64,000 bases of DNA from the NCBI GenBank assembly GCA_020724805.1, contig DYGI01000001.1, positions 239,157 to 303,156 of the forward strand. Reading direction: 5' to 3'. The notes under the pieces were generated by a model that had not been told where the DNA came from, ran no database searches, and saw only the letters and a program-made list of their open reading frames with translations. Below are positions 4,621 through 38,641 of this stretch, piece by piece (position 1 is the first letter of the stretch; each line of letters opens with the position of its first letter). A program made the translations under genes and the position numbers. This stretch comes from Candidatus Microgenomatus sp. GTDB lineage: Bacteria; Patescibacteriota; Minisyncoccia; UBA6257; GWB1-50-10.

Positions 4621-5283
4621 CTAGAAAATGGCGCGGACGGAAATGGCGGCCATCATGTCGCGTGGTTCGAACGAGCGGTTCGAATCCCATCGCCCGATGA
4701 GCACCATCGCCGACACGGATATCGGCATGGCGATTGGCTGAAGATCGATGCGCGGCCCCGCGCCTTTTCCGTCTTCGGCGTAGACGCCGCATCCGAGCCA
4801 ACGCGCGACTCGTATCTTGAGGCGCGCCTCCCACCAATAAATCTGGTTCGGGCCTGCGTCGACCACGCAGTCGAGGTAGTAGAAATTCCTTGACCCCGCG
4901 AGCGCAGTGAGATCATTGCCGAGCCAGAGGCGTCCCCGGAGATAGTAGAAGTTCTCGAGCGGGTTGCCGTTGATGCCCGCACCGAGCTCCACCCCGATAT
5001 AGGGAATGGGGGCATAGGAAAGGCCGGCGACGAGGGCGCTATGCGGTGCCCAGTCGTTGTTGGCGCGCGCGAACGCGAACCACCCCACTTTTTCCCTCCC
5101 TGAGATCCAGAAGTAGCTCTGGAAATAGGCGGTCCCATAGGCGGTTGCCCCGGACGAGTCGAAATACCACCTTCCTTCCACCAAACCACCTTTCATTTCC
5201 TCTTCCTCGGAGACGGCTTGCGATCGGGCGGGGATTGGGACGCACCACGCAAGAAGCGTAAGTGCGAAGAATACCTTCTTCAT
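4621..5283 (-). CDS. secreted beta-rich protein with OMP-like C-terminus
   Basis: Signal peptide MKKVFFALTLLAWCVPIPARSQA. Aromatic-rich. Ends ...AAISVRAIF (terminal Phe with alternating hydrophobics, the beta-barrel OMP signature). Confidence 0.55.
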   Translation of the reverse strand: MKKVFFALTLLAWCVPIPARSQAVSEEEEMKGGLVEGRWYFDSSGATAYGTAYFQSYFWISGREKVGWFAFARANNDWAPHSALVAGLSYAPIPYIGVELGAGINGNPLENFYYLRGRLWLGNDLTALAGSRNFYYLDCVVDAGPNQIYWWEARLKIRVARWLGCGVYAEDGKGAGPRIDLQPIAMPISVSAMVLIGRWDSNRSFEPRDMMAAISVRAIF

Positions 5284-5425
5284 GTCGGTTCCTCCTAGAT
5301 AGTGTCGAATTGTGAGTGTATTACTGTACTAAGGTTTACAATTTTTTCACCCACGAGTCAAGTTTTTTATGAAAAGCCCCCACCAGAGTCATTGGTAGGG
5401 GCGATGTAGGATGAGCACCCGAATG

Positions 5426-5911
5426 TCAATTGTCCATCGGGCGCCATGGTTTCTTTTTCAACGCGTGACGGACTTTCGTATCCCCGCTGTCTTTCGGGAC
5501 GGCGGAAACTTGTAGAGTCCGTGTCATGGGGGCGCTGACGTGCGTTTGTTCGCGCTTGATATCGCGTGATGCGGTATCGAGGGGAGCAGTAGTGCGCCGC
5601 GTTTCCTTCGACAGTTTCGTTGCGGCGGGTTTTTGGTGAACCACCAGTGAGACCCTTTTCTTTATGAGGTGGGGAATCGACGAGTGATCGACGTGCGGAC
5701 GAACGGCGGAGTCTGGTAATGGCGATGGTGAAATCGTCTTCTTCGGGGTTGTGGGCACCACGCGGGTGATTTTGGCGACGCCGTCTTCTTGTGCCTCAGG
5801 GCGCTCGAAGAAACACACGACACCTACGCCCATAAGGAGAACAAGAAGCGCGAGCGACATCCATATCAACCAGCGTTTTTTCTGCCCACTTCGTGGCTCT
5901 TTGGTTTTCAC
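5426..5911 (-). CDS. hypothetical membrane-anchored protein
   Basis: 161 aa. Single N-terminal TM (WLIWMSLALLVLLMGVGVVCFF), then low-complexity basic region. No recognisable domain. Confidence 0.4.
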   Translation of the reverse strand: MKTKEPRSGQKKRWLIWMSLALLVLLMGVGVVCFFERPEAQEDGVAKITRVVPTTPKKTISPSPLPDSAVRPHVDHSSIPHLIKKRVSLVVHQKPAATKLSKETRRTTAPLDTASRDIKREQTHVSAPMTRTLQVSAVPKDSGDTKVRHALKKKPWRPMDN

Positions 5912-6070
5912 AATATCACCTTCGTTTGTTTTAGTTATATGGGGTTATGCTGCGCGCACTATATCACCGTGCCTACATATTGACAAGATGGTGATGCCGT
6001 GGGATACATTGTGACAGTACTACCCTATAGGAAATCCTATATTTCACAACAACTAAAAGGAAAAATCGCC

Positions 6071-7612
6071 ATGAAGCGATTATTCGCAGTATTAGCGGTG
6101 CTGTGGTGGTGCGGCGAGCGGAGCATGGCGCAGCATATTGTTTCCGCAATCCGCACCGTCCGCGTCGCCGAACGCATCGAGGCATACAGTGCTGAAGGGG
6201 TGTTCATGGGGGCCTTTAAGGCATCTCTTCTGAACACCGTGTACCCGGTGCCGACCATCATCGGAGACCAATTCCTCGATTCGAAAGATCTCCGGCGGAC
6301 CGATTCCGCATCGGTGGGAACCGGTGCATGGCGTGTCGAAATGAACACCTCGGCGGATAGCATCAGCCGCTATCTCGTCATCATAAAGACGGTGCCCGCG
6401 ATGACCGTTCCCGCGAGCATCAATACCGATTTCCGGGTTCCGACATGGGTTACGAATCGGGTGCGCGTTGCGGAAAGTTTTTTCCGTGACGATGTGCCGG
6501 TCGTGAACTCCGGTCTCGACACGATCTTCGCAAGTGCAAGCTATCAAACCTCCACCCTTCAATTTCCGTCCGTGACCGGACAGGTGAATCAATGGGTACT
6601 GTGGGTCTCCTATATGTATGGAGAAGAAGGGCACCTTGTGCTCTTTTTCGACCAAGTGGTTGCCCCAGGAGGTGTGGTGTTGGAAAACGGAGAAGCAGGG
6701 GCTGATGTAACGGCTCCCGGTGCTCCTTCGGGTATGACGCTCACCGCGACTTCCGCCACCTCGGCGGATGCTCGCGCAACTGCACCGGCAGACGCCGATG
6801 TGGGAGGCGTGGTATTCGAACTTGACACCTCGCCGGCATTTACCAACCCAACACGAGTGATCGCATTCGCGACTCCAGGAGTGGAGGTGGTCAATACCTT
6901 CATTAATCTTGCGCCATCGACGCTGTATTACTGCAGGGCGGCGGCGCGCGACGTATCGGCAAACCAAGGAACATTTTCCGCGGTCGATACGGCGATGACC
7001 TTCACCTCAACGGGGAGTGGACTACCGGGAGCACCTACCAGTTTTGTGCTTACCGGAGCCTCATCTTCATCGGTGGTAGCGGTGTTCGAGCACGGTGTGG
7101 GCGCTATGTATACCGAAGTGCAACTTACCGAAGGGCTTTCTTTCGGAAGTTCGTACTCCGTGCAATTGGTTGCGGCGACCCCAGGAGCTCCCGGATTCGC
7201 GATTTTTACGGGGCTTCCGGCAAACCGAACCTTTGCGGGGAGAGCGCGCTCGGTGAACCAGGACGGACTTTCGGCATATGCGCCGCAGGACACCGGACGA
7301 ACATTCACCGTGACGACCGGCGTGGAGAAGTGGAGTGAAGCGCCGCATGCGTTTGCGCTCCACGGCAACTTCCCGAATCCATTCAATCCCACGACCATGA
7401 TCCGCTACGATGTGGGGGAAGAGGCAGTTGTGAGCATTACGGTGTACGACGTGCTCGGACGGACGATGGACGAACTGCTCTTGCGAGAACTGCGGGGCCC
7501 CGGCCGTTACGACGTGACGTGGAACGCTTCAGCGCATCCGAGCGGCATCTACTTTTGCCGAATGGAAGCGGGAAGGTTTACCGCGACGACGAAGATGCTT
7601 CTTGTGCGGTAG
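6071..7612 (+). CDS. secreted protein with T9SS-type (Por_Secre_tail-like) C-terminal sorting domain
   Basis: ATG 6071 with AAGGA SD. Signal peptide MKRLFAVLAVLWWCGERSMA. C-terminal ~80 aa FPNPFNPTTMIRYDVGEEAVVSITVYDVLGRTMDELLL...GIYFCRMEAGRFTATTKMLLVR matches the T9SS CTD consensus. Confidence 0.6.
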   Translation: MKRLFAVLAVLWWCGERSMAQHIVSAIRTVRVAERIEAYSAEGVFMGAFKASLLNTVYPVPTIIGDQFLDSKDLRRTDSASVGTGAWRVEMNTSADSISRYLVIIKTVPAMTVPASINTDFRVPTWVTNRVRVAESFFRDDVPVVNSGLDTIFASASYQTSTLQFPSVTGQVNQWVLWVSYMYGEEGHLVLFFDQVVAPGGVVLENGEAGADVTAPGAPSGMTLTATSATSADARATAPADADVGGVVFELDTSPAFTNPTRVIAFATPGVEVVNTFINLAPSTLYYCRAAARDVSANQGTFSAVDTAMTFTSTGSGLPGAPTSFVLTGASSSSVVAVFEHGVGAMYTEVQLTEGLSFGSSYSVQLVAATPGAPGFAIFTGLPANRTFAGRARSVNQDGLSAYAPQDTGRTFTVTTGVEKWSEAPHAFALHGNFPNPFNPTTMIRYDVGEEAVVSITVYDVLGRTMDELLLRELRGPGRYDVTWNASAHPSGIYFCRMEAGRFTATTKMLLVR

Positions 7613-7684
7613 CAGTTTATAACGGGTGCCTCCGAACCATTGGTTCGGAGGCGCTTTATTTTTCAGCGGTTTGGTGTGGTGAAG

Positions 7685-7713
7685 TTGACACTGTTTCGAA
7701 AAAGGGGTATACC
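7685..7713 (+). promoter_or_regulatory. sigma70-like promoter (TTGACA-N17-TATACC), near-leaderless
   Basis: TTGACA at 7685-7690, TATACC at 7708-7713. ATG of downstream CDS at 7724. Confidence 0.4.
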
Positions 7714-7723
7714 ATTTACCACG

Positions 7724-9670
7724 ATGGTTATGACAAATTTTCTTATCCTAGGGCGGAATACCGCATGCCTTGCCATGCTTTTTGTAGTGGCGTTTTTCCT
7801 CTTGTTTCCTCAACTTTCGGGGGCGCAAGTAGTGGTGGTGGACTCCGTAACGCTTACACCTTCCGTCTCCGGCACCTCGGTGACGCTTAGCTGGACCACG
7901 TTGGCCGAGACCGCGCTGCATGAAGTACGTTACGCGACGAGCCCGCTCGACGAGTCGAACTGGAGCTCCGGGTCCGTAGCTGGAGGAGTGCCGGGACCGG
8001 TTCCTAACGCGGATCAGAACGTAACAATTTCCGGACTTGCTGCGAGTACGCCTTACTATTTCGGCTATCGGTATGAAACCACCTTCGGCGGGGTAGGATT
8101 CGCATTTACTTCCGCGACCACCGAAAGCGACGGTGGGGGAGGTGATATTTTTGCGCCCGGTCCTGTCTTGAACCTCACCGCCACGGCCGCAGGCACCACT
8201 GCGATTGCGCTTTCGTGGACCGCTCCTTCGGACACGGACATTGCGAACTACGATGCGCGTTGGAGTACGAGTCCCATCAATGCCTCCAATTTTAATTCCG
8301 CAACGGCTATTTCGGGAGTTCCTCTCCCCATCCCGAATGCATCCCAGAACGTCACGGTGGGAGGGCTCACGGCGGCGACCACTTATTATTTTGCGATAAA
8401 GGTTCTCGACACGGTGGGGAACGAGTCGCCCATCGCGACTGCGTCCGCGACGACCGGGAGTGATGGCGGCGGAGGTGGCGGTGGTGGAGGCAGCGGCGGA
8501 GGTGGTGGCGGTAGCGGAGGAGGAAGTGGCGGGGGCGGAAGCTCGAGCCCTGTCTCCTTCTTCATTAACAACGGTGATGAGAAAACGACCACGACGACCG
8601 TGACGCTCAATATAAATGCACCGAATGCCACGCGGATGCAGTTTTCACGCGAGAACAATTTTGCGGGCGCAACGTGGCTTCCTTATGCAACCACCTCGAT
8701 ATGGGAATTGACTCTTCCCAATGGAGAAAAGACGGTCTATGCAAATTTTGTGCGCGACCTTCAAGCGTTCGGAGTAGGCGCGTATGAGAACATCGGTACC
8801 GCGTGGGATTCCATCGTGCTTGAAGCGGCGACGTCCACCATTCCCGCGGCGATTCCTGAACCCGTAGTGGTAGAGACACTTCCTCCGACACCTGCTCCCG
8901 TTCCCGCGCCGGCACTTCCACTCGCGACGCTTGAGAGGGATCTCGTGAGTTTCAACTCACTCATGGTGAACTGGGGCGCGCATACGGTTCGGATACCACA
9001 AGATTTGAATCGTGATTTTGTGGTGGACGGCGTTGATGTGCGCGAGTTTCTTGGGGAATGGACGCGCTCGGCGGACGAAGAACGCGCCTCGCTCACCAAG
9101 GATCTTTTTGGGAATACCATTGTGACGCTCACGCCGGGTGAAATACGCGAGATGGAAGACAGCGAATTCATGATTACCTTCCTCGCGCATCCCGCGGAAG
9201 GACGGAATTACACCGCGCAAATTTCATTTACTTTTCCGCCTGAGCTCGCAGAGTTCGTGTCGTTCACTTACTCAGGCGGTTGGGTTCCGGTCATTCGCGA
9301 TAGTTTTGATGTCAGCGACAATACGCACGGCCTTCTCGTGAAAACCGCCGGTCATCCGGAGGGATTTTCGGAGCCTACTATCTTCGGTTTTGCGCGTTTT
9401 CGTGCAAAGGCCGCAGGTGAGGGGGTCTTTGCCTTCCGGAACAACGGCTTTTCGCTCGACGGCGAGGGGAACGACGTGCTCTCCGCGTCCCTCGGCGGAG
9501 CCTCACTCGCATTCGAAAGCAACGTGTCGGCTCCTGCGCTTTTCCTCGCGAACGTGCTCACGCTGTGGCGCGAAGGGAACATGACGGCGACGCTGGTGAC
9601 GTTTGCGCTTCTCTTCATTGTGTATTTTGTCTCGCGGCGCCGCACTCGGGCCGTACGGAAGGTTTTGTAG
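7724..9670 (+). CDS. cell-surface protein: two FN3-like domains, Gly/Ser linker, dockerin-like segment, C-terminal TM anchor
   Basis: Signal/TM CLAMLFVVAFFLLFPQLSGA. Repeated TLSWT...YYF blocks (FN3-like). GGGGGGGGGSGGGGGGSGGG linker. DLNRDFVVDGVDVREFL (dockerin-like Ca-binding repeat). C-terminal TM plus basic tail TLVTFALLFIVYFVSRRRTRAVRKVL. Confidence 0.6.
   Translation: MVMTNFLILGRNTACLAMLFVVAFFLLFPQLSGAQVVVVDSVTLTPSVSGTSVTLSWTTLAETALHEVRYATSPLDESNWSSGSVAGGVPGPVPNADQNVTISGLAASTPYYFGYRYETTFGGVGFAFTSATTESDGGGGDIFAPGPVLNLTATAAGTTAIALSWTAPSDTDIANYDARWSTSPINASNFNSATAISGVPLPIPNASQNVTVGGLTAATTYYFAIKVLDTVGNESPIATASATTGSDGGGGGGGGGSGGGGGGSGGGSGGGGSSSPVSFFINNGDEKTTTTTVTLNINAPNATRMQFSRENNFAGATWLPYATTSIWELTLPNGEKTVYANFVRDLQAFGVGAYENIGTAWDSIVLEAATSTIPAAIPEPVVVETLPPTPAPVPAPALPLATLERDLVSFNSLMVNWGAHTVRIPQDLNRDFVVDGVDVREFLGEWTRSADEERASLTKDLFGNTIVTLTPGEIREMEDSEFMITFLAHPAEGRNYTAQISFTFPPELAEFVSFTYSGGWVPVIRDSFDVSDNTHGLLVKTAGHPEGFSEPTIFGFARFRAKAAGEGVFAFRNNGFSLDGEGNDVLSASLGGASLAFESNVSAPALFLANVLTLWREGNMTATLVTFALLFIVYFVSRRRTRAVRKVL
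8465..8543 (+). repeat. low-complexity GGN/GGC codon tract (poly-Gly/Ser linker)
   Basis: ggcggcggaggtggcggtggtggagg... tract inside CDS 7724-9670. It generates a spurious poly-Pro antisense ORF (8386-8658). Confidence 0.8.
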
Positions 9671-26663: not shown

Positions 26664-26785
26664 AGGGACGCCTATGAAGAACTTTGTTTTACATAGCGCG
26701 TCCATTAATAAGTGCATAACCCGCTTTTGTTGCAGCAACAGAAGCGCGGTATACCAGTGAAGATTTTTTTCGTTGTCCTAGTCAG

Positions 26786-26812
26786 CGACTGGCAATTGCC
26801 AGTCGTATTTTT

Positions 26813-26814
<2 letters not shown>
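26786..26814 (+). terminator. perfect 20-nt palindrome plus T-run abutting the 16S 5' end (terminator-like or processing stem)
   Basis: CGACTGGCAATTGCCAGTCG followed by TATTTTTT. Lies between the rRNA promoter and the mature 16S start. Confidence 0.4.
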
Positions 26815-28301
<1,487 letters not shown>

Positions 28302-28509
28302 TAGTACACTTATCTTTTTCATTCCGAAGGGAGGGAGAAAGATAGCGAGCGAAAGATAGGAGGAGAGTGGAACGCGAACTCGTTTTTCGTTCCGCTCTCA
28401 GCCAGATCACGCGAATCCGTGAGGATTCAACAGGTGTTGGCCACTCAGCCTTAAGTTGGTGGCTCTAGGACAACGAAAAAAGTTTTTGGTGGTATACTGA
28501 AAATCAAAC

Positions 28510-28890
28510 ATGGCGGAAATAAAACGCATTCTTTTAGTTGAGGACGAACCTCTTTTGGGAAATCTTTTGAAGCAGCGCCTTGAGAAGGAGGGGTTCGAGA
28601 TAGTCCTTGCGCGCGACGGCGAGGAAGCGCTCGCGAAACTTCGCGAATCGAAGCCCGATCTCATTCTTCTCGACATAATTCTTCCGAAAATCTCTGGGTT
28701 CGAGCTTTTGGAGACCCTTCAAGCGGACCCCCAGTTCGAACGGGCGCCCGTCATCGTCATTTCGAATTTGGGTCAAGAGAGCGACGTGGCGCGGGGGCAG
28801 GCCCTTGGTGCTATTCAGTATTTCGTGAAGGCAAAGGTTTCCATAGAAGAGCTTGTGGAACACGTGAAAACGTTCCTGAGGGGACACTAA
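28510..28890 (+). CDS. response regulator, receiver domain only (CheY/PilH-like)
   Basis: ILLVEDEPLL...DLILLDIILPKISGFELL...KAKV. Single REC domain. Confidence 0.85.
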   Translation: MAEIKRILLVEDEPLLGNLLKQRLEKEGFEIVLARDGEEALAKLRESKPDLILLDIILPKISGFELLETLQADPQFERAPVIVISNLGQESDVARGQALGAIQYFVKAKVSIEELVEHVKTFLRGH

Positions 28891-29678: not shown

Positions 29679-31394
29679 ATGATCAATCTCCCGAACGAGA
29701 AATTGAAAGAAATCGTAGTTCGTGCGGGTGCGGTGGATGAAACGATGTTCGACGCGGTAGGAGAAGAAGCCGCGCGGAAACGCCAAAGCCCCGTCGAGAT
29801 CCTCATTTCGCGCGGACTCATCTCGAAAGATTATTTCCTTATATTGGTGGCGAAAGCGCTCGGGGTTGAGCGTGTGAATTTAGGTGTGGTAAAGATTGAC
29901 GAACAAGTACTTCATCTACTTCCCGAGGATGTGGCGCGTCGAAGGAAGGTGATTCCGTTCGGCGCGGAGCCCGACGGGCGTTACAAGGTGGCGATGGAGG
30001 ACCCCACCGATCTTGAGACCATCGACTTTTTGACGTTGCGGCTCAATGGTCCTGTGAAGCCGTATCTCGCGGACGATGACGATTTAAACCGCGGTTTCAC
30101 GGTCTACCAGAAGCGCCTTACACAGGACTACAAGAAAGTCATTGAAGAGAGCGTGCAGGAATCCCTGCGGTCCAAAACGCAGGGAGGGCTGGAAGAGGCC
30201 GCGGAGGACCTTCCTATCGTTGCTATCGTCGACAATCTCCTCGAATATGCCATCTCTTCCCGCGCGTCTGATGTGCATTTCGAGATGCTCGACGACGGCA
30301 TTCTCGTGCGGTACCGCATCGACGGTATTTTGCACGAGATTATCCGAATGCCGAAAGAGGTGCACCCGGCGGTCGTCGCGCGCATTAAGATACTTTCGAA
30401 CCTTCGCGTCGACGAGCACACGCACCCTCAGGACGGACGTTTCCGATACAAGCTTGGAGGGAACGTTATCGACGTTCGCGTATCGGTCATCCCGACATTC
30501 TATGGAGAAAAAATGGTCCTTCGGCTTCTCTCCGCGGCACAGAAGCCGCTTTCGCTCGGCGAGCTCGGCATCATGGAGAACGATTCGAAGTCGATAGAAA
30601 CCGCGATTTCAAAAACCTACGGTATGGTGCTCGCGTGCGGACCCACCGGTTCCGGTAAAACCACAACGCTCTATTCCATCTTGAATCTCTTGAATAAGCC
30701 GGACGTGAACATTGTGACCATCGAAGACCCTATCGAGTACGATATGCGCTATGTGAACCAGATGCAGGTGAACGTGGCGGCCGGCATTACGTTCGCATCG
30801 GGGCTCCGCTCGGTGCTTCGCCAGGATCCGAACGTTATCATGGTCGGTGAGGTGCGTGATGCTGAGACCGCGAACATTTCGGTACAGGCGGCTTTGACCG
30901 GCCACCTGGTGCTTTCATCGCTCCACACGAATGATGCGCCGACCGTGGTGCCGCGCCTCATTGATATGGGTATCCCGCCATTTTTAGTCGCGGCGGTATT
31001 GAACGACATCATCGCGCAGCGCCTCGTGCGGAAGGTTCACTTGGACTGCATCGAATCCTACGTGCCAGAGAAAAGCGTGCTCGAAACCATTGCGCGCGAG
31101 CTTGAATCGCAGGGAGTGGATCCGCGTACCGTGAAATTGCCGAAAACGTTCTATCGTGGAAAGGGATGCACGGCGTGCGGTGGTACGGGGTATTTTGGAC
31201 GTCTCGGCATCTTCGAAGTACTCCCGGTTTCCGAAGCGGTGCGAAAACTCATCATTTCGGACGAATTCAACCTTGATAATCTCCGGAAGGTCGCGCGTGC
31301 GGAGGGAATGGTGACCATGTTCGAAGACGGACTTCGAAAAGTGGAACGGGGCATTACCACCATCGCGGAATTGTTTAGAGTGATAAGAGAGTAA
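29679..31394 (+). CDS. pilB: type IV pilus assembly ATPase PilB (GspE family)
   Basis: 571 aa. N-terminal GspII_E_N-like region. Walker A GPTGSGKTTT. Tetracysteine CTACGGTG. Confidence 0.92.
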   Translation: MINLPNEKLKEIVVRAGAVDETMFDAVGEEAARKRQSPVEILISRGLISKDYFLILVAKALGVERVNLGVVKIDEQVLHLLPEDVARRRKVIPFGAEPDGRYKVAMEDPTDLETIDFLTLRLNGPVKPYLADDDDLNRGFTVYQKRLTQDYKKVIEESVQESLRSKTQGGLEEAAEDLPIVAIVDNLLEYAISSRASDVHFEMLDDGILVRYRIDGILHEIIRMPKEVHPAVVARIKILSNLRVDEHTHPQDGRFRYKLGGNVIDVRVSVIPTFYGEKMVLRLLSAAQKPLSLGELGIMENDSKSIETAISKTYGMVLACGPTGSGKTTTLYSILNLLNKPDVNIVTIEDPIEYDMRYVNQMQVNVAAGITFASGLRSVLRQDPNVIMVGEVRDAETANISVQAALTGHLVLSSLHTNDAPTVVPRLIDMGIPPFLVAAVLNDIIAQRLVRKVHLDCIESYVPEKSVLETIARELESQGVDPRTVKLPKTFYRGKGCTACGGTGYFGRLGIFEVLPVSEAVRKLIISDEFNLDNLRKVARAEGMVTMFEDGLRKVERGITTIAELFRVIRE

Positions 31395-31523
31395 GGATAT
31401 GAATCCCGTTAGCGGCAACTAATATCATGTTCATGTTTCACCGTATAAATCCAAAAAATCGTAATATAAAGGTCTCGTGGCACAACCACGGTCGCCTTGG
31501 GGCGACCTACCTCTAACGGGATG
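31395..31523 (+). repeat. intercistronic structured element, copy B (SD + mini-ORF MNPVSGN + two GC hairpins + start codon of pilC)
   Basis: AAGGAT-ATGAATCCCGTTAGCGGCAACTAA, then AAAGGTCTCGTGGCACAACCACGGTCGCCTTGGGGCGACCTACCTCTAACGGG-ATG. About 85% identical to copy C outside the central loop. Confidence 0.6.
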
Positions 31524-32729
31524 AAATATCGTTATATTGCATCACAGCAGGATGGACGCGTGGTTGAGGGAGACCTCGAGGCGCGTGATATGACCGAGGC
31601 GCTCGCCACTCTCGGGAAAAACCAATTAAAACCGGTGAGTTTGAAACCGCTCGAAGAAGCGGCCAAGCGGTCATTTGCGCTGTTCAGAGGGAAAATGACG
31701 TTGACTGATCTCGTGTTCATGTCGAAATACCTCTCGCTCATGTTGAAAGTGGGAACGGGACTTTTGGAAGCAATAAATATTCTCGTGGCTGACATCAAAA
31801 AGCCCGCGGTGCGCGACATTCTTCTTGAGATTCGCACTACCTTGGAGCAAGGTCAGCCGTTCTACACCACATTCGCGAAGTATCCGCGTGTTTTCGGGAG
31901 CGTGTATGCAAACCTCGTAAAAGCAGGAGAAGCATCGGGTGACCTTGAACATGTGTTTGAGGATCTCACCGAGGATCTCACCAAACAAAAAGACCTCAAG
32001 GACAGGGTGCGCGGCGCCTTGATATACCCAATTCTTCTTCTCATTGGGTCAGTGCTTATCCTCTCGTTTCTTGTGGGGTTCGCGCTCCCAAAGATCGCAG
32101 ACGTCTTTCTCCAAGGCGGATTCGAGCCTCCACTTTTCTCGCGCATCGTCTTTTCCGTCGGGCTTTTCTTCAGTGATTACGGGATCTATTTCCTAGGAAT
32201 TTTTCTTGTGCTGGTCGTGATGGTGTGGCGACTCTATATTGCGTCCCCATTCTTCAAGAAATTTATTTTAGGAATATTTGCCGAGATTCCCCTCATTCGT
32301 GATGTGGTGCAGAAGATCGCGCTCCAGCGATTTGCGTCTACCTTCTCCTCGCTTATCCGCGCGGGAATGCCCATTACCGACGCCTTGGAGATTACCGCAA
32401 CCGCGGCGGGGAATGTGGAACTTTCGGAGTCATTAATGCGCATTTCGCGCGAGGGTCTCATGAAAGGGCTCACCATCGGCGAGGCGTTCAAGCGCGAACC
32501 TTTCTTTCCGCAGACCGTCGCGAGCCTCATGTCCATCTCTGAAAAGGCGGGGCATTTAGATGAAGTGCTGGGAACTCTCTCCGATTTCTACGCCAAAGAA
32601 ATAGACGCGTCGGTAAAATCACTCGTGTCATTCTTGGAACCGCTTCTCCTCGTCTTGATTGGTGCGGTCATCGGCGTTATCGCGCTTGCCATTATTGTGC
32701 CTATCTATCAATTGACCACCCAGTTTTAA
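31521..32729 (+). CDS. pilC: type IV pilus inner-membrane platform protein PilC (GspF family)
   Basis: MKYRYIASQQDGRVVEGDLEA... typical PilC N-terminus. Two GspF repeats with TM helices. Confidence 0.9.
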   Translation: MKYRYIASQQDGRVVEGDLEARDMTEALATLGKNQLKPVSLKPLEEAAKRSFALFRGKMTLTDLVFMSKYLSLMLKVGTGLLEAINILVADIKKPAVRDILLEIRTTLEQGQPFYTTFAKYPRVFGSVYANLVKAGEASGDLEHVFEDLTEDLTKQKDLKDRVRGALIYPILLLIGSVLILSFLVGFALPKIADVFLQGGFEPPLFSRIVFSVGLFFSDYGIYFLGIFLVLVVMVWRLYIASPFFKKFILGIFAEIPLIRDVVQKIALQRFASTFSSLIRAGMPITDALEITATAAGNVELSESLMRISREGLMKGLTIGEAFKREPFFPQTVASLMSISEKAGHLDEVLGTLSDFYAKEIDASVKSLVSFLEPLLLVLIGAVIGVIALAIIVPIYQLTTQF

Positions 32730-32785
32730 AAAATTGATTCTTATTGAAACATTGAAAATTGAATCATTATGAAGATTGAAAGGTT
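32730..32785 (+). repeat. AT-rich TTGAAR-unit element R1
   Basis: aaaaattgattcttattgaaacattgaaaattgaatcatt runs into the ATG of the four-helix-bundle gene. Same unit family as R2-R5. Confidence 0.6.
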
Positions 32786-33152
32786 CGAAGATCTACCGAT
32801 ATGGAAAGATGCGCGCGTACTTATTCAAATAATCTACAAACTCTCAGCCCCATGGAAAGATTTTTCATTGCGAGACCAAGTAAGACGAGCGGCAGTTTCC
32901 GCGATTTCCAACATCTCTGAAGGGTTTGAGCGCGGTTCTAATCGGGAATTTATACAATTTCTCTATATTGCGAAAGGCTCATTAGGAGAACTTCGCGCGC
33001 AACTTTACGTTGCATATGATGTGCGAATGGTAGGTAAAGAAAATTTTGAAAAATGTCTCGCGCAATGCGAGGTAGTTTCAAGGGGCATCAGCCGTTTCGT
33101 GGGATATTTGAGAAAATCCCCACTTACCAAAGAAAGGCACAAATCCAGATGA
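32769..33152 (+). CDS. four-helix-bundle protein (23S rRNA IVS protein / Avd-like family)
   Basis: 127 aa. ...AISNISEGFERGSNREFIQFLYIAKGSLGELRAQLYVA matches the TIGR02436/PF05635 family. Confidence 0.75.
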   Translation: MKIERFEDLPIWKDARVLIQIIYKLSAPWKDFSLRDQVRRAAVSAISNISEGFERGSNREFIQFLYIAKGSLGELRAQLYVAYDVRMVGKENFEKCLAQCEVVSRGISRFVGYLRKSPLTKERHKSR

Positions 33153-34324
33153 ACAAGGAATCTTTCAATTCTTCAATGGTTCAATCGCGTGGCGCGCGAA
33201 GCGCGTTCACGCTCATAGAAATGTTGGTGGTGGTTGCACTCACCGTTGCTATTGCGACCGCAGGTTTTCTCGGCCTTTCGGGATATCGCAACAAGCAAGC
33301 GCTCGAATCGGGCCTCGATGAACTCCGCGCGGCGGTGGAGGCAACGAAGCGTCGTTCGGTAGCGCAGGAGGAAGGAAGCCGGTGGGGGATGCGGTTTACA
33401 AACGCGACTTCCGGCATTTCCTCATACTCTGTCTTTCAGGGAAGCTCATATTCCACGAGCGGTATCGACCGTACCTACTCGTTCCGTGACCCCGTGGGGT
33501 TCATGAATCCGTCCGCTTCATCCACCTACGATGTGGTGTTTGCCCCGCTCTCCGGAGCGCTCTCGGAAAATAAAGTGTTCACGCTCGGCGGGGGCTTAAA
33601 AGGTTTTATCGGAGACCTTATTCTTCGCACTATCGGGTCCATCACCGCGCGCACCGATCAAGACGTGGTGGGATATTGGCACTTGGATGAAGGAACGGGA
33701 ACCGCCGCCTACGACTCCTCTGGTTACGGAAATACCGGCACACTCACGAACGGTCCGACGTGGCAATCAGGGACGAGCTGTAGGGCGGGAGGATGTCTAA
33801 ATCTAAACGGTTCGACGCATTACATACAGTACGGGAACGTTTTGAATATGGGTCTTGATGACTGGACGATTTCTGCGTGGGTCAATACAACAGATTCCTC
33901 GCTGACTAATCGGTATTATTTGAGCAAATCAAGAGCGGCAGCGCAAAACTACCGCTACGGTTTATTTATTAGCTCGAGCACACAATCGGGAGGGATATTT
34001 ATGCAGGGGAATGGGGGTGCCGATGTGGCGGTGAGCGGGAATGTAGCCGTCAATAACGGCCAATGGCACCACTTAGTCTCCGTTTTTGACAGAGACAACA
34101 ACGCCTCACTCTACATTGATGGCGCTTTGAATGCGAGCGGAACTATTTCGCAATGGGCAAGCGCAAATATGGTATCAAACAACCCTTTTAGAATAGGGTC
34201 GTACACTGCGTCTGATAATACTACGCCAACGCTATTTTTCCCCGGATCGGTGGACGAATTTCGTGTCTGGAGCCGGGCGCTCTCCGCGAGCGAGATTGAA
34301 GCGCTCTATAATGACCTTAAGTAA
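33149..34324 (+). CDS. type IV pilin-like protein with C-terminal LamG (concanavalin-like lectin) domain
   Basis: RSAFTLIEMLVVVALTVAIATAG pilin-type N-terminus (A at -1). LamG hallmarks WHLDEGTGTAAYDSSGYGNTGT...VDEFRVWSRALSASEI. Confidence 0.7.
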   Translation: MNKESFNSSMVQSRGARSAFTLIEMLVVVALTVAIATAGFLGLSGYRNKQALESGLDELRAAVEATKRRSVAQEEGSRWGMRFTNATSGISSYSVFQGSSYSTSGIDRTYSFRDPVGFMNPSASSTYDVVFAPLSGALSENKVFTLGGGLKGFIGDLILRTIGSITARTDQDVVGYWHLDEGTGTAAYDSSGYGNTGTLTNGPTWQSGTSCRAGGCLNLNGSTHYIQYGNVLNMGLDDWTISAWVNTTDSSLTNRYYLSKSRAAAQNYRYGLFISSSTQSGGIFMQGNGGADVAVSGNVAVNNGQWHHLVSVFDRDNNASLYIDGALNASGTISQWASANMVSNNPFRIGSYTASDNTTPTLFFPGSVDEFRVWSRALSASEIEALYNDLK

Positions 34325-34400
34325 ATGAAATTGAAAATTAAAAAATTGAAAATTGAACGATTGAATAGCAAATTTTTCAATCTTTCAATCCTTCAATCAC
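34325..34400 (+). repeat. AT-rich TTGAAR-unit palindromic element R2 (overlaps annotated 5' end of next CDS)
   Basis: ATGAAATTGAAAATTAAAAAATTGAAAATTGAACGATTGAATAGCAAATTTTTCAATCTTTCAATCCTTCAATCAC. Imperfect palindrome of tandem subrepeats. Confidence 0.6.
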
Positions 34401-35695
34401 ATTCGCGCTCCGGTCAATCATTGGTAGAAGTCGTCATCGGGCTCGCCATTGGGGCGATACTCATGGGTACCGCGGCCTTTGCGGTGACCACCATGCTCAA
34501 AACCAACCTCACTTCGGAAAAGTCTCAATTCGCCTCACGGTTCGCGCAGGCGCTTGCGGACAATGTACGCTCCTATGCGGTGGGGAATTGGGATTCGCTC
34601 TACAGCCTTACCAAGGCCACGAGTTCACATTATTTTTTGAACGCGTCCGGCACCACATTCTTTGTGGTGGAAGGCGAAGAGGGGATGTGGGATGGGGACG
34701 TAACTAGCGGACTCGTGGGACAGTGGAAATTCGACGAAGTGGAGACCACGACCAGCACGACCACCTATGATGCAACAGGCAATAGAAACCATGGGACTCT
34801 CGGGGGTAGCCCTACGAGAAGCACATCAACATGCAAAATTTCCAATTGCCTCACTTTCAACGGATCTAGCAATGGTGTCAGTGTTTCCGATAGTGCCACT
34901 TTCGACTTCGGGGCCGGAGATTTTTCGGTGGCGGTTTGGGTTAATCCTGCGGGAGGAGGAACGGGAGATACCCAAGACATGCTTGTTTCCAAAACATCCT
35001 ATCCGAGCGGTTTTAACAATCGTGGCCCCGGTTTCTACCTTGGAAGAGCCAACGATAGTTATTGGTCATTCATGGTGGCCGACAGCCCGGATGTGGGAGG
35101 TAATAAAGTGAATACCGGACAGAATCCTTCAGGATGGTTTCATCTTGCGGGCATTTCGGAAGGAGGAGTTCTTAAAATGTATTTGAACGGCACGCTTATG
35201 AGCACCACTACAAGGACCGTGGGGTCGGTAGATAATAGCGTGAATCTTTATTTCGCATACCGTCCTAGTGCGTGGTATTTCGGAGGAAGTTTGGACGACG
35301 TTCGTCTTTATAACCGTGCGCTCTCCGCAGATGAAGTTCGCCAACTTTGGAACTCGGGAGTGTATGAGCGTTTCTTTACCATTGAAAATGTGTGTCGCAC
35401 GAACGATGCCTCGAGCACTATCGCTTCAACCGCACCGTGCAGCGGAACACTCGAAGACGGTTCAACCCAATGGATTACGAGCTATACGCAGTGGGTCACG
35501 GGTGCGGGAACGAACGAAGTGACGATTCCTTCCATCATTGCGCGGTGGCAAAATGCGGTATTTCACCAGAGCGACTGGTCGGGAGGCGCGGCGAGCGAAG
35601 GCGCGGTCGTAGAGCCTACCAACAAGTTCTCAAGTTCCACGAATGCTTCGACGACCGGCGGGGTCATACAGATACAGAATCTCTCACAGCAATAA
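34325..35695 (+). CDS. type IV pilin-like protein with LamG domain (second paralog; true start uncertain)
   Basis: Cleavage-type motif SGQSLVEVVIGLAIGAILMG (G-1, E+5). LamG motifs WKFDE...GNRNHGTL...LDDVRLYNRALSADEV. The first 25 codons are encoded by repeat R2. A TTG start near 34363 is possible. Confidence 0.65.
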   Translation: MKLKIKKLKIERLNSKFFNLSILQSHSRSGQSLVEVVIGLAIGAILMGTAAFAVTTMLKTNLTSEKSQFASRFAQALADNVRSYAVGNWDSLYSLTKATSSHYFLNASGTTFFVVEGEEGMWDGDVTSGLVGQWKFDEVETTTSTTTYDATGNRNHGTLGGSPTRSTSTCKISNCLTFNGSSNGVSVSDSATFDFGAGDFSVAVWVNPAGGGTGDTQDMLVSKTSYPSGFNNRGPGFYLGRANDSYWSFMVADSPDVGGNKVNTGQNPSGWFHLAGISEGGVLKMYLNGTLMSTTTRTVGSVDNSVNLYFAYRPSAWYFGGSLDDVRLYNRALSADEVRQLWNSGVYERFFTIENVCRTNDASSTIASTAPCSGTLEDGSTQWITSYTQWVTGAGTNEVTIPSIIARWQNAVFHQSDWSGGAASEGAVVEPTNKFSSSTNASTTGGVIQIQNLSQQ

Positions 35696-35700
35696 AGAGG

Positions 35701-35780
35701 TTATTGAAGAATTGAGAGATTAAAGAATTGAAGAATTAGGAGATTAATAAAGAATTTTTCAATCTTTCAATTTTCAATAC
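35701..35780 (+). repeat. AT-rich TTGAAR-unit palindromic element R3
   Basis: attgaagaattgagagattaaagaattgaagaatt ... aatttttcaatctttcaattttcaat. Left and right halves are reverse complements. Confidence 0.6.
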
Positions 35781-35805: not shown

Positions 35806-36207
35806 ATGGCAACGATAAGGAACTTCCATGAAAAGTTAGAACAAGATCTCCAACGGGTAACCGCGGAGATCGAGCGCCGCAGGGAACGCGCACCCGAAAT
35901 CGCATCACGCGAAGTGGTGAGGCAGTCCATTATTGCGGCAATACCTCAAGCACCTGTTTCGGAGAGGGTCGAGGCCTCTCCCTCTGGTTCTTCACCGGCC
36001 GCGCCGGAGCGAATTCCCGCATATCTTAATGAGGAATCTCCTGAAATAAAGGCGGAGGTGGAACGACTCGTATCGCTGGCGTTCGAGAAGGGCATTTCAT
36101 CGGCAGTGGAAGAGGCGGCAAAAAAGTCCCCGTTCGTACTTGATGCGTTCCACGATGCGCTTGCGGATAAACTTCTGCCGGAATTGGAGAAAAGAGGAAT
36201 AATTTAA
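35806..36207 (+). CDS. hypothetical protein (133 aa, predicted helical)
   Basis: ORF between R3 and R4. Charged, helical composition. No motif recognised. Confidence 0.45.
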   Translation: MATIRNFHEKLEQDLQRVTAEIERRRERAPEIASREVVRQSIIAAIPQAPVSERVEASPSGSSPAAPERIPAYLNEESPEIKAEVERLVSLAFEKGISSAVEEAAKKSPFVLDAFHDALADKLLPELEKRGII

Positions 36208-36264
36208 AAATTGAAGAATTGAAGCATTGAATGATTAATTTTTCAATTTTCAATTTTCAATTTA
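36208..36264 (+). repeat. AT-rich TTGAAR-unit palindromic element R4
   Basis: aaaaattgaagaattgaagcattgaatgattaatttttcaattttcaattttcaattt, ending 4 nt before ATG 36269. Confidence 0.6.
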
Positions 36265-36268
36265 TTTT

Positions 36269-38641
36269 ATGACCCCATTCACCATCATTTTTCTTGTGGT
36301 GCTCGCCGGTGCGGGCGTCGGTTTTTATTGGTGGACACGGAGGAATACGCGTCGGCGTCTTGCGGAAGGGCTTCGGAAGAAGTTGTTTCTTATCCGGTTT
36401 CCGCGTGCTACGGGAGAAAAAGCCGGAAATGCGGAAGAAGTGGCGCGCGCGGTCGCGCTTTCTGAGCAGTTGGTGACCGCGCTCGCGGTTCCCGGTGAGT
36501 CCATCACTTTTGAGATCGCGGTACCTTACGTAGGGGAAGAGATACATTTTTACGCAGCAGTTTCCCGCGGAATGGCAGAACCTTTTATTCGACAAGTGCA
36601 ATCGCTGTGGAGCGACGCACGGGTGGAACCGGCGGATGATTACAACGTGTTCCACTATGGAGGAACCGTCGCAGGCGTGACGCTTCGTGAATCTTCCCGC
36701 TTCCTTCTCCCGCTGCGTACCTATCGCGAGGTGGGCAGCGACACATTCCTTTCCATTCTCGGCGGTCTCACGAAAGTGAATGCAGTAGGAGAAGGGTGTG
36801 CCATACAGTATGTGGTGAGGCACGCTAAGAAAGACGCAAAGCGTGAACTTACTGGAGTGCGAAAGGGGCTAGAAAAGGGGATGCCGCTCTCACATTTTCT
36901 CGATGAAAAAAAAGCTGCGCTCGCCGATCTTAAACATGCGGTTGCACCCCAGAAGAAGGACGAGAAAAAAGGTGCACAGGAGCCGGTGCGCGATGAACGA
37001 GGGGAAAAGTTGGTGGAGAGCAAACTCTCGCGACCGCTCTTCGAAGTGAATGTGCGCGTGGTCGTTTCGGCGCCCACCCCTCACCGCGCGGAAGGGTTGC
37101 TTTCCGAGCTCACTACTGGCTTCACACAGTTCGACGTGCCGGAAAGGAATAGCTTCAAGTTGGTGAGACCGAAACAGATGAATACGTTCGTGCGCCAGTT
37201 TTCGTTCCGCGAATTTTCTCCGGAAGACGCCATGGTGTTGAATGCAGAAGAATTTGTGAGCATTTTCCACTTGCCGACTCCGTGGACCATACTTCCGCGC
37301 ATACGCATGGTGAAAAGCCGGGAAGCGCCACCGCCGGCGAAACTTCCTTCCCAGGGAATGCTCCTTGGGGAGAGCGTCTACCGTGGCGAGCGTCGTCCCG
37401 TAAAACTTGCGGACGAGGATCGCCGGCGTCATCTCTATCTCGTAGGGCAGACCGGCACCGGGAAAAGCACGCTCATCACCTCGCTTGCCGCGCAGGATAT
37501 GGCAAACGGGAAAGGGCTTGCGCTCATCGATCCTCATGGCGACTTGGTTGAGCGCCTTATGGCGCTTGTGCCGCCGGCGCGGATGAATGATGTGGTGGTA
37601 TTCGACCCATCCGACCTCGAACTTCCCGTAGGGGTGAACATGATAGAGCACGACCCCGCGAACCCGGAGCAAAAAACGTTCATTGTGAACGAGCTTCTTG
37701 GAATATTCGACAAACTCTACGATCTCAAAGCGACCGGAGGGCCGATGTTCGAACAATATATGAGAAATGCGCTTCTCCTTCTCATGGAAGATGCCGCGCA
37801 TGAACCCGCCACACTCATGGAAGTGCCGAGGGTATTCACCGACGGGGCGTGGCGCGCACAAAAACTTGCGCGTATCACAAATCCCACCGTGCAGGATTTC
37901 TGGGAGAAGGAAGCGGTAAAAGCGGGCGGCGAAGCGGCGCTTGCAAACATTACGCCTTACGTGACCTCGAAATTCGCAGCGTTCACCGCGAACGATTATA
38001 TGAGGGTCATTGTGGGCCAAACGCGCTCCGCATTCAATTTTCGGGAGCTTATGGACGGGGGAAAAATACTTTTTGTGAATTTGGCGAAAGGGAAAATAGG
38101 AGATCTCAACGCGTCGCTTCTCGGTATGATTATTGTGGGTAAGATCCTTATGGCAGCACTCTCCCGCGGAGACATGCAGGAGCAATCGCGCCGCGATTTC
38201 AACCTTTTCATCGACGAGTTCCAGAATTTCACCACCGATTCCATTGCAACCATTCTTTCGGAGGCGCGGAAGTATCGGTTGAATCTCACCATTGCCCACC
38301 AGTTTTTGGGTCAGCTTACCGAGAAGATCAGAGATGCGGTATTCGGCAACGTTGGTTCGCTTCTCGTGTTCCGCGTGGGGGCGCCGGATGCGGAGCTTTT
38401 GGCAAAACAGCTTGGCGGCGCATTCACTCCCGACGATCTTACCAACCTCGATAATTTTCGCGGCTCCCTGAAGCTTTTGGTGGATGGAGAAACCGCGCCT
38501 CCGTTCTCGCTTGCGCTTACGCCGGCGCTTCATGGAGACGACTCGCTTCGCACATCAATTAAAGAACGTTCCCGTACAAGATACGGGAGACCGCGCGAGG
38601 AAGTGGAGAGGGAAATACGGGAGCGGCTTCGGAAAATATGA
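36269..38641 (+). CDS. membrane-anchored T4SS-type ATPase (VirB4/TraG-VirD4-like, FtsK-HerA superfamily)
   Basis: 790 aa. N-terminal TM. About 350-aa unknown domain. Walker A LYLVGQTGTGKSTL. Walker B/TraG-D_C-like block NLFIDEFQNFTTD...ARKYRLNLTIAHQFLGQL. Confidence 0.75.
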   Translation: MTPFTIIFLVVLAGAGVGFYWWTRRNTRRRLAEGLRKKLFLIRFPRATGEKAGNAEEVARAVALSEQLVTALAVPGESITFEIAVPYVGEEIHFYAAVSRGMAEPFIRQVQSLWSDARVEPADDYNVFHYGGTVAGVTLRESSRFLLPLRTYREVGSDTFLSILGGLTKVNAVGEGCAIQYVVRHAKKDAKRELTGVRKGLEKGMPLSHFLDEKKAALADLKHAVAPQKKDEKKGAQEPVRDERGEKLVESKLSRPLFEVNVRVVVSAPTPHRAEGLLSELTTGFTQFDVPERNSFKLVRPKQMNTFVRQFSFREFSPEDAMVLNAEEFVSIFHLPTPWTILPRIRMVKSREAPPPAKLPSQGMLLGESVYRGERRPVKLADEDRRRHLYLVGQTGTGKSTLITSLAAQDMANGKGLALIDPHGDLVERLMALVPPARMNDVVVFDPSDLELPVGVNMIEHDPANPEQKTFIVNELLGIFDKLYDLKATGGPMFEQYMRNALLLLMEDAAHEPATLMEVPRVFTDGAWRAQKLARITNPTVQDFWEKEAVKAGGEAALANITPYVTSKFAAFTANDYMRVIVGQTRSAFNFRELMDGGKILFVNLAKGKIGDLNASLLGMIIVGKILMAALSRGDMQEQSRRDFNLFIDEFQNFTTDSIATILSEARKYRLNLTIAHQFLGQLTEKIRDAVFGNVGSLLVFRVGAPDAELLAKQLGGAFTPDDLTNLDNFRGSLKLLVDGETAPPFSLALTPALHGDDSLRTSIKERSRTRYGRPREEVEREIRERLRKI

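Follow-up and report, generated by a model that had tools for sequence, protein, structure and literature searches.

A pilus-operon four-helix-bundle gene as the likely cargo of an intervening-sequence-type cassette enclosed by inverted repeat arrays

The stretch of DNA considered here, referred to as the window, comprises 64,000 nucleotides from Candidatus Microgenomatus sp., a genome of Parcubacteria type (candidate phyla radiation) whose nearest named relatives are Candidatus Brennerbacteria and Jorgensenbacteria. It carries a pilus cluster in the order pilin gene, pilB, pilC, a gene for a four-helix-bundle (4HB) protein, two genes for pseudopilins with a Laminin_G_3 domain (LamG1 and LamG2), a gene for a protein of 133 amino acids and a gene for a DUF8128/TraG-like ATPase. 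Gene calls and Pfam matches confirm the position of the 4HB gene between pilC and the LamG pseudopilins, which had been described in an earlier account made from the letters of the DNA (the sequence-only reading). That account took the gene for a possible remnant of a diversity-generating retroelement (DGR) and offered as a fallback that it had been carried in by a palindromic element abutting its start codon. The fallback turned out to be essentially right and became the main finding. The features around the 4HB gene are as follows:

31497 or 31521 to 32729, plus strand: pilC (T2SSF match in Pfam), the upstream neighbour of the 4HB gene.
32730 to 32792, plus strand: left arm, tandem units of about 8 nt, ATTGATTC, ATTGAAAC, ATTGAAA and ATTGAATC, then ATGAAGATTGAAAGG (sequence and repeat finder).
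32769 to 33152, plus strand: 4HB gene (PF05635/TIGR02436, 127 amino acids), the probable cargo in the loop of a split palindrome (open reading frame (ORF) from ATG to TGA, profiles, AlphaFold2 and Foldseek).
33149 to 34324, plus strand: LamG pseudopilin 1, with Pfam matches to N_methyl (the prepilin N-methylation motif) and Laminin_G_3.
33155 to 33185, plus strand: right arm, made up of (nnTTCAAT)x3 and complementary to the left one (sequence, repeat finder and fold).
34325 to 35695: LamG pseudopilin 2, with the prepilin N-methylation motif and Laminin_G_3.

The protein belongs to the 23S-rRNA-IVS/four-helix-bundle family to which it had first been assigned. It matches Pfam family PF05635 (23S_rRNA_IVP; E=3.6e-30, 104.7 bits against a cutoff of 33.8, covering positions 1-105 of the 106 in the profile), which is its only Pfam match, and NCBIfam TIGR02436 ('four helix bundle protein'; 100.5 bits against a cutoff of 24). 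The two motifs quoted for that assignment, SNISEGFERGS and LYIAKGSLGEL, are both present and most of their residues are invariant across 36 homologues. Modelled as a monomer by AlphaFold2 with these 36 homologues, the protein is predicted to form a confident four-helix bundle of four long helices (pLDDT 92.3), for which Foldseek gives XCC0516 of Xanthomonas campestris (2GSC; TM 0.84/0.91, 35% identity) as the best structural match, with BT_0352 (2RLD; TM 0.75/0.88) also found. The gene is present once in the window and has a G+C content of 0.43 as against about 0.51 in its flanks. Its stop codon overlaps the ATG of LamG pseudopilin 1 (ATGA, 33149-33152), and a scan for sigma-70 promoters and terminators found no promoter-like site ahead of it, the counts for the region being no higher than expected from shuffles.

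The 4HB gene occupies the loop of a split palindrome, in which (ATTGAAnn)n runs up to the start codon and (nnTTCAAT)n follows the stop. The left arm begins directly after the stop of pilC (32729) and extends into the first codons of the 4HB gene (ATG AAG ATT GAA AGG), while the run after the ORF, TTTCAATTC TTCAATGG TTCAATCG, lies in the 5′ end of the gene for LamG pseudopilin 1, where it encodes part of the leader peptide (SFNSSMVQS; the leader reads MNKESFNSSMVQSRGARSA up to the prepilin site and is followed by FTLIE). The palindromic element seen at the start codon is real, as judged both from the repeat finder and from folding, with the minimum free energy fold of 32720-33200 pairing 32758-32786 with approximately 33155-33185 so that the ORF is enclosed. 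Only left-type units are found upstream of the 4HB gene and only right-type units downstream. Hairpins built from the same ATTGAA unit, though with no ORF inside them, are found at four other places in the window:

34325 to 34397, plus strand: ORF-less hairpin at the junction of LamG1 and LamG2 (repeat finder and fold, z -3.3).
35703 to 35778, plus strand: ORF-less hairpin between LamG2 and the 133-amino-acid gene (fold, z -5.1).
36200 to 36265, plus strand: ORF-less hairpin between the 133-amino-acid gene and the DUF8128/TraG-like ATPase gene (fold, z -3.3).
50328 to 50385, plus strand: ORF-less hairpin beyond the pilus cluster, flanked by rpsR and a PAP2 gene (fold, z -1.8).

The right arm of the first of these encodes the leader of LamG2 (FFNLSILQS). 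Over the whole window TTGAAN3TTGAA occurs 22 times against 5.3 expected, a count that none of 100 shuffles reached. At gathering thresholds Rfam finds the 16S rRNA and two tRNAs in the window and nothing at the cassette or the hairpins.

Two features typical of the intervening sequences (IVS) of 23S rRNA are therefore present: a stem of terminal inverted repeats around an ORF and short tandem repeats directly before the start codon. The IVS of Coxiella has a terminal inverted-repeat stem of 28 bp that is cleaved within the stem by RNase III, and three to four tandem GACAGAT heptamers just ahead of the S23p start codon, the ORF being reportedly in decay and probably not translated (PMC4990558). 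With the 23S IVS that carry an S23p/PF05635 ORF (Leptospira, Coxiella, Brucella) the window element has in common the protein family, the ORF in the loop of a terminal-repeat stem, the 7-8-nt tandem repeats directly before the start and a compact overall size of about 430-460 nt. It differs in that the host transcript is an mRNA operon, at the junction of pilC and a pseudopilin, rather than helix 25/45 of 23S rRNA (the only rRNA gene in the window is 16S, at 26808-28310), in that the right arm is translated as a prepilin leader, and in that the ORF is under purifying selection whereas that of Coxiella is reportedly in decay. Pfam finds no transposase domain in the 4HB protein, and no target-site direct repeat was seen at the borders of the cassette when filled and empty sites were compared by eye, no formal search being made.

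The same arrangement is found in related species. The closest homologues (77, 72 and 68% identity) lie at the same site, pilB-pilC-4HB-LamG pseudopilin; arms of the same type are present in the orthologous loci L007, L008/L015 and L009, and the ATGA overlap is kept in these and also in L011. Homologues with 54-57% identity are likewise in pilus clusters, directly 5′ of a prepilin-like gene in which TTCAAT or TTGCAAT repeats encode the leader, and all seven close loci of Parcubacteria type are in such clusters compared with 1 of about 159 other loci. Among four syntenic orthologues the dN of the 4HB gene is 0.14-0.23, similar to that of PilC (0.10-0.34) and PilB (0.10-0.24), with the LamG pseudopilin well above this (0.44-0.67). 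Because synonymous sites are saturated, dN/dS could mostly not be computed, and the few ratios obtained are 0.09-0.28. With dS saturated and dN similar to that of PilB and PilC, the 4HB protein is under purifying selection and has diverged together with the operon.

Two relatives show the site without the element. In L179 (Candidatus Brennerbacteria) and L180, whose PilC and PilB are 87% and 88-89% identical to those of the window, there is neither a 4HB gene nor arms, and the stop of pilC overlaps the start of the pseudopilin directly (TGATG and TAATG). The leaders of these pseudopilins have no repeat-encoded residues, being MRNGFSQQHFSKQPLQSGAG and MRKG before FTLIE. As these close relatives have neither part, arms and ORF behave as one unit that is present or absent as a whole. 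In trees of PilB and PilC, L179 and L180 fall within the cassette-bearing group, the carriers L007 and L009 branching outside it as outgroups, so that loss of the whole cassette would be the simplest history, although transfer among relatives may also have taken place. The ORF-less hairpins appear to go with the 4HB gene, as judged from a few, related genomes, since matches to TTGAA(N2-4)TTGAA in the orthologous pilus regions number 7-15, at three to six sites, in carriers, compared with 1 and 0 in L179 and L180.

In place of the ORF-less hairpin that separates LamG1 from LamG2 in the window, L179 has a gene for 134 amino acids (7357-7960) with weak matches to HTH_23 and Trp_repressor. The same 16-nt palindrome, CTATGCTATAGCATAG, is found on both sides of it, making this a second kind of palindrome-bracketed small-gene cassette at minor-pilin junctions.

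Beyond the pilus operon, inverted arms were scored by local alignment of two stretches, one composed of the 120 nt upstream of an ORF and its first 30 nt, the other being the reverse complement of its last 30 nt and the 120 nt downstream, and the best alignment was taken. This score replaced the RNAduplex energy of 150-nt flanks, which was rejected because it failed to tell 4HB genes from controls, being dominated by long loose duplexes and dependent on G+C. In a GTDB set of 83 4HB genes from many phyla (45-100% identity, the window and its close relatives included) 88% reach a score of at least 24, with a median of 40, compared with 4.2% of 552 control ORFs, with a median of 16 (p=6e-46). For 75 4HB genes on metagenome contigs, an independent set, the proportion is 65%, against 3.1% of 193 control ORFs (p=1e-17). 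Matching arms are thus found in 65-88% of about 150 homologous loci and in 3-4% of control ORFs.

These arms are arrays of 7-11-nt units, and the unit varies by locus (AGTTCAA, AGTCCAA, GGTTGAA, GGGTTTC, ACGTTCG, GGTCTCA and ATTGCAA are examples) while the two sides of each locus stay complementary. Arms paired with their own partner have a median score of 38 against 16 with the right flanks of other loci (p=4e-25), and the true partner outscores all ten mismatched partners in 66% of loci. The distance from the end of the left arm to the start codon has a median of 21 nt, and that from the stop to the right arm a median of 9 nt. Since both neighbours are co-oriented with the 4HB gene in 93 of 115 loci and the median gaps to them are short (62 and 55 nt), the typical site of the cassette is the intercistronic gap of an operon. 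Extra arrays of a locus's own unit were found within the available 6-12 kb in 14 of 90 loci.

Locus L013 has four PF05635 genes interspersed in one pilus cluster (1577-1888, 6001-6393, 7182-7742 and 8720-9103), each with a different arm unit (AAGTTAAAAAT, AGATTGAA, GACTTATAAGTCCTATTAG and GATACTAATAGATATTT). Repeat arms are translated as prepilin leader peptides here too (SFNLSIFQS... at 6425-6465), as they are at 33159-33185 and 34372-34397 of the window. The L013 leader region contains four perfect copies of the 8-nt unit CTTTCAAT, and since gain or loss of one such unit shifts the frame, slippage could act as an on-off switch for this minor pilin. The bracketed layout appears to serve other small cargos too in the pilus clusters of these Parcubacteria-type genomes: in L011 a PDDEXK_3 (PF13366) gene at 8923-9486 is enclosed by inverted arms of 47 nt, and arms of 54 nt at 4959-5439 enclose approximately 370 nt in which the only called ORF is of 49 amino acids, while in L013 a PDDEXK_3 domain and a prepilin motif are called as one product of 309 amino acids (5035-5964).

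A distant case is that of XCC0516, the X. campestris protein that is both the best structural and the best sequence match of the window protein and that is a homopentamer of four-helix bundles (2GSC). An orthologue from X. campestris, 86% identical to it, is encoded between accB and accC and on their strand. Its start codon, a GTG, falls within the array GGGAATC-GGGAGTG-GAGAATC-GGGAATC, and four copies of ATTCCCN come after the gene; the two arrays pair on folding (duplex energy -44.9 kcal/mol). Like the 4HB gene of the window, this gene is intercistronic and co-oriented, and a genome-dispersed heptamer forms the inverted arrays around it; it differs in its unit (GGGAATC as against ATTGAAnn), its host operon and its phylum. 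In that Xanthomonas genome the GGGAATC heptamer is found at approximately 186 sites, 70 of them as convergent inverted pairs, and the heptamer arrays of Xanthomonas and Nostoc are mostly intergenic, with positions conserved between species (Rehm et al, 2015; PMC4692102). These share with the arrays described here the 7-nt unit and the many convergent inverted pairs; however, they were read as G-quadruplex-forming and no tie to a 4HB gene was drawn (PMC4692102), and the units found here are mostly not G-rich.

It therefore seems likely that the 4HB gene is the cargo of an IVS-type cassette, composed of a left array, the 4HB ORF and a reverse-complement right array, that rides in the pil operon, and that it is not part of a DGR. 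The cassette separates pilC from the first minor pseudopilin, shares their strand and has no promoter-like site to itself, and its right arm supplies a new start region and an N-terminal leader extension to the pseudopilin. It has persisted at this site in several Parcubacteria-type species, four besides that of the window, while purifying selection acted on its protein. Its connection with pili is one of position rather than function; a purely functional link was considered and downgraded, as the relatives with the same operon have an empty site. The distribution of arms and neighbours indicates that this operon-resident form of the cassette is widespread and, as far as could be found, undescribed: in the literature searched, coverage of which was incomplete, there is no description of repeat-array arms around PF05635 members outside rRNA.

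A possible mechanism can be outlined. As there is no promoter-like site ahead of the 4HB gene, the cassette would depend for its transcription on read-through within the pil operon. In the RNA the arms may then form a stem of approximately 25-30 bp, of the type that is a substrate of RNase III in the 23S IVS, which would sequester the start of the 4HB gene and the first codons of the pseudopilin gene. Ribosomes that end the 4HB ORF could reinitiate at the overlapping pseudopilin ATG, so coupling the translation of the two. Avd, the accessory protein of DGRs, is basic and binds nucleic acid and the reverse transcriptase (RT), which by analogy suggests a nucleic-acid-related role for the family. 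The 4HB protein may, by comparison with the Avd pentamer, act on nucleic acid too, most plausibly on its own repeat arrays.

Several observations weigh against the cassette reading or parts of it. The window's own arm score of 31 is modest, with about 2-3% of control ORFs reaching 28-32. RNase III processing in this organism would be an analogy, and G:U mismatches in the arms (115) are not in excess over A:C (108), so that nothing points specifically to selection on the sense RNA; a role at the level of DNA, as a hairpin or cruciform, or homogenisation of the arrays by slippage may be at work instead. The cassette encodes no enzyme able to move it and no recent duplicate copies were seen, and for this reason its mobility is argued from presence and absence among relatives. 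It could have a real role in the pilus operon, given that all seven close loci are in pilus clusters and that purifying selection is strong. Finally, the search for an RT took in the called genes of the 64-kb window rather than the whole genome of roughly 0.57 Mb.

Such a role is central to the alternative in which the 4HB protein is a domesticated regulator of the operon, which would bind the ATTGAA hairpins as RNA or DNA and set how strongly the minor pilins are expressed relative to one another, or how they are processed, with its origin in a cassette being only history. This is unlikely, though much at the locus fits it: the constant position, the ATGA coupling and the purifying selection across species with saturated synonymous sites, the pilus context of the seven closest loci, the co-occurrence of hairpins and gene, and the location of four of the five hairpin sites of the window inside the pilus cluster, one at each junction. 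However, L179 and L180 have the same operon with neither the gene nor the hairpins, from which it follows that the pilus operon works without both, and relatives of the gene are found in unrelated operons, namely accBC in Xanthomonas, gmk-nadD in Flavobacterium and cmr3-cmr2 in a cas locus.

It is considerably more doubtful that there is no element at all and that ordinary intergenic hairpins of the host, terminator-like or REP-like, happen to flank an ordinary small gene. The ORF-less ATTGAA hairpins at other junctions would be in keeping with this, as would the neighbouring genes in L014 and L008 that are likewise bracketed by such hairpins. Chance flanking does not, however, account for the strict placement of left-type units upstream and right-type units downstream of the 4HB gene, for empty sites that have neither the arms nor the ORF, for matching arms with locus-specific units in most homologous loci across phyla, or for the different units carried by paralogues in one genome.

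The original proposal, in which the protein would be an Avd-like accessory factor, as a remnant or acting in trans, of a DGR that diversifies or formerly diversified the LamG pseudopilins, is now hardly credible and is close to refuted. PF05635 is the commonest Pfam family beside DGR reverse transcriptases (PMC10053308), and Foldseek places Avd of Bordetella phage third after 2GSC and 2RLD among the matches of the model (4DWL; TM 0.73/0.86), with similarity also to the DGR ribonucleoprotein 8UB7 (TM of approximately 0.7). The supposed kinship to Avd thus stands at the level of the four-helix-bundle fold. It does not extend to sequence, as identity to Avd is 16% and a profile of the 36 homologues, which finds 2GSC (XCC0516, E=1.3e-21) and 2RLD (BT_0352) in the PDB, retrieves no Avd chain even at E<=1; the closest structure is accordingly that of a non-DGR protein. 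No RVT-family RT is present in the Pfam lists for the called genes covering the window or in the loci of the seven related species, although a distant RT acting in trans from elsewhere in the genome is conceivable. Neither the repeat finder nor sensitive self-BLAST revealed a pair of template and variable repeats (TR/VR) in the window, the latter giving no pair of at least 45 nt that involves the LamG genes except an in-frame paralogous motif, and no adenine bias.

The hypervariability expected of the LamG genes on that proposal was not found at the level of assemblies either. The 4HB and LamG genes show not a single difference in five other assemblies of the same population, one of which has 15 differences elsewhere, mostly in the 16S rRNA gene; an apparent frameshift in another is a run of N. 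The usual targets of DGRs have C-type-lectin or Ig folds, whereas the two downstream neighbours match only N_methyl and Laminin_G_3 (plus weak related matches), the latter being ConA-like, and no variable C-type-lectin or Ig-like region was found in them. The arms of the cassette also account fully for the flanks of the gene. A defence or addiction module, such as a toxin-antitoxin-like gene kept by post-segregational effects, is equally far-fetched: the gene is small, patchily distributed and below its flanks in G+C, but it is a single ORF amid housekeeping-type pilus genes with no partner gene, and PADLOC gives no match for the 4HB protein or for the 133-amino-acid neighbour.

Other features of the neighbourhood were noted. 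The DUF8128/HerA/TraG-like ATPase that ends the pilus cluster throughout the relatives has 790 amino acids in the window (36269-38641), where it matches mad8 of PADLOC (E=5.9e-18) and also DUF87 and T4SS-DNA_transf. A repeat of 133 nt, 77% identical, is found between pilB and pilC (31394-31525), where it overlaps the TTG start listed for pilC, and between rpsF and ssb (49511-49643); its core (AAAGGTCTCGYGGCACAACYACGGTYGCCTTGKGGCGACCTRCCTCTAACGGGATGAA) resembles a structured leader or RNA motif, with no Rfam match at gathering thresholds. The 16S rRNA gene adjoins the pilus cluster upstream, the 23S gene not being in the window, and is bracketed by a 33-nt inverted repeat (26749-26781 and 28465-28497, 85% complementary) that is probably an RNase III processing stem and whose right arm directly precedes a response-regulator gene at 28510. 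In L179 a LAGLIDADG homing-endonuclease gene (540-968) lies upstream of the response-regulator gene, where the window has the uninterrupted 16S rRNA gene, which suggests an rRNA insertion in this relative but not in the window genome.

Systems of the REP/REPIN and RAYT type consist of a transposase gene flanked by inverted short repeats that are also dispersed as ORF-less intergenic hairpins between the genes of operons. The 4HB gene of the window resembles them in its flanking inverted repeat and in the four dispersed ORF-less hairpins of the same unit. It differs in encoding a small helical bundle, with a PF05635 match only and no Y1 (HUH) transposase domain, and in having arms that are arrays of tandem 7-11-nt units rather than single imperfect palindromes. 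It is conceivable, though tentative, that PF05635 proteins and short tandem-repeat arrays together make up a widespread two-part element with a RAYT/REPIN-like logic that has so far gone unrecognised. Each 4HB gene would be a 'master copy' with 7-11-nt repeat arrays of its own on both sides; the protein, probably pentameric, would recognise its own unit and would either spread or maintain ORF-less hairpins of that unit genome-wide or control how these hairpins are processed in transcripts.

Some published cases look like further operon-resident cassettes that have been read as functional or prophage associations. A functional link to CRISPR was previously assumed for 23S_rRNA_IVP genes lying amid cas genes, such as between cmr3 and cmr2 (PMC3936711), a case that a passenger explanation fits equally well, and in Flavobacterium columnare the gmk-nadD interval holds a gene for a 'four helix bundle protein' that was listed as a phage element (PMC5524665). 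If the two-part element is real, one mechanism would cover the 23S IVS, the GGGAATC arrays of Xanthomonas and the hairpins in operons of Parcubacteria type, and PF05635 genes would be passengers in the unrelated operons (pili, cas, accBC) with which they are recurrently 'associated'.

For the locus itself a false lead is removed, in that a PF05635 gene beside genes for surface proteins is no evidence of a DGR, and the same caution applies to earlier readings by guilt of association such as that of the cas-locus genes (PMC3936711). In this Parcubacteria-type organism the cassette has rewritten the start and the leader peptide of a minor pilin, and the long potential stems at every minor-pilin junction may affect the expression of the pilus genes. 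The origin, mobility and function of the 23S IVS and their S23p ORFs have been standing questions since the early 1990s; a repeat-array stem around a 4HB ORF is frequent in many phyla among protein-coding genes as well. It comes and goes as a unit and is accompanied by ORF-less hairpins built from its own repeat. The interest of the finding lies not in the pilus context but in this general pattern and in its link, through XCC0516 between accB and accC of X. campestris, to the Xanthomonas heptamer, which makes the question testable in a culturable organism with a solved structure.

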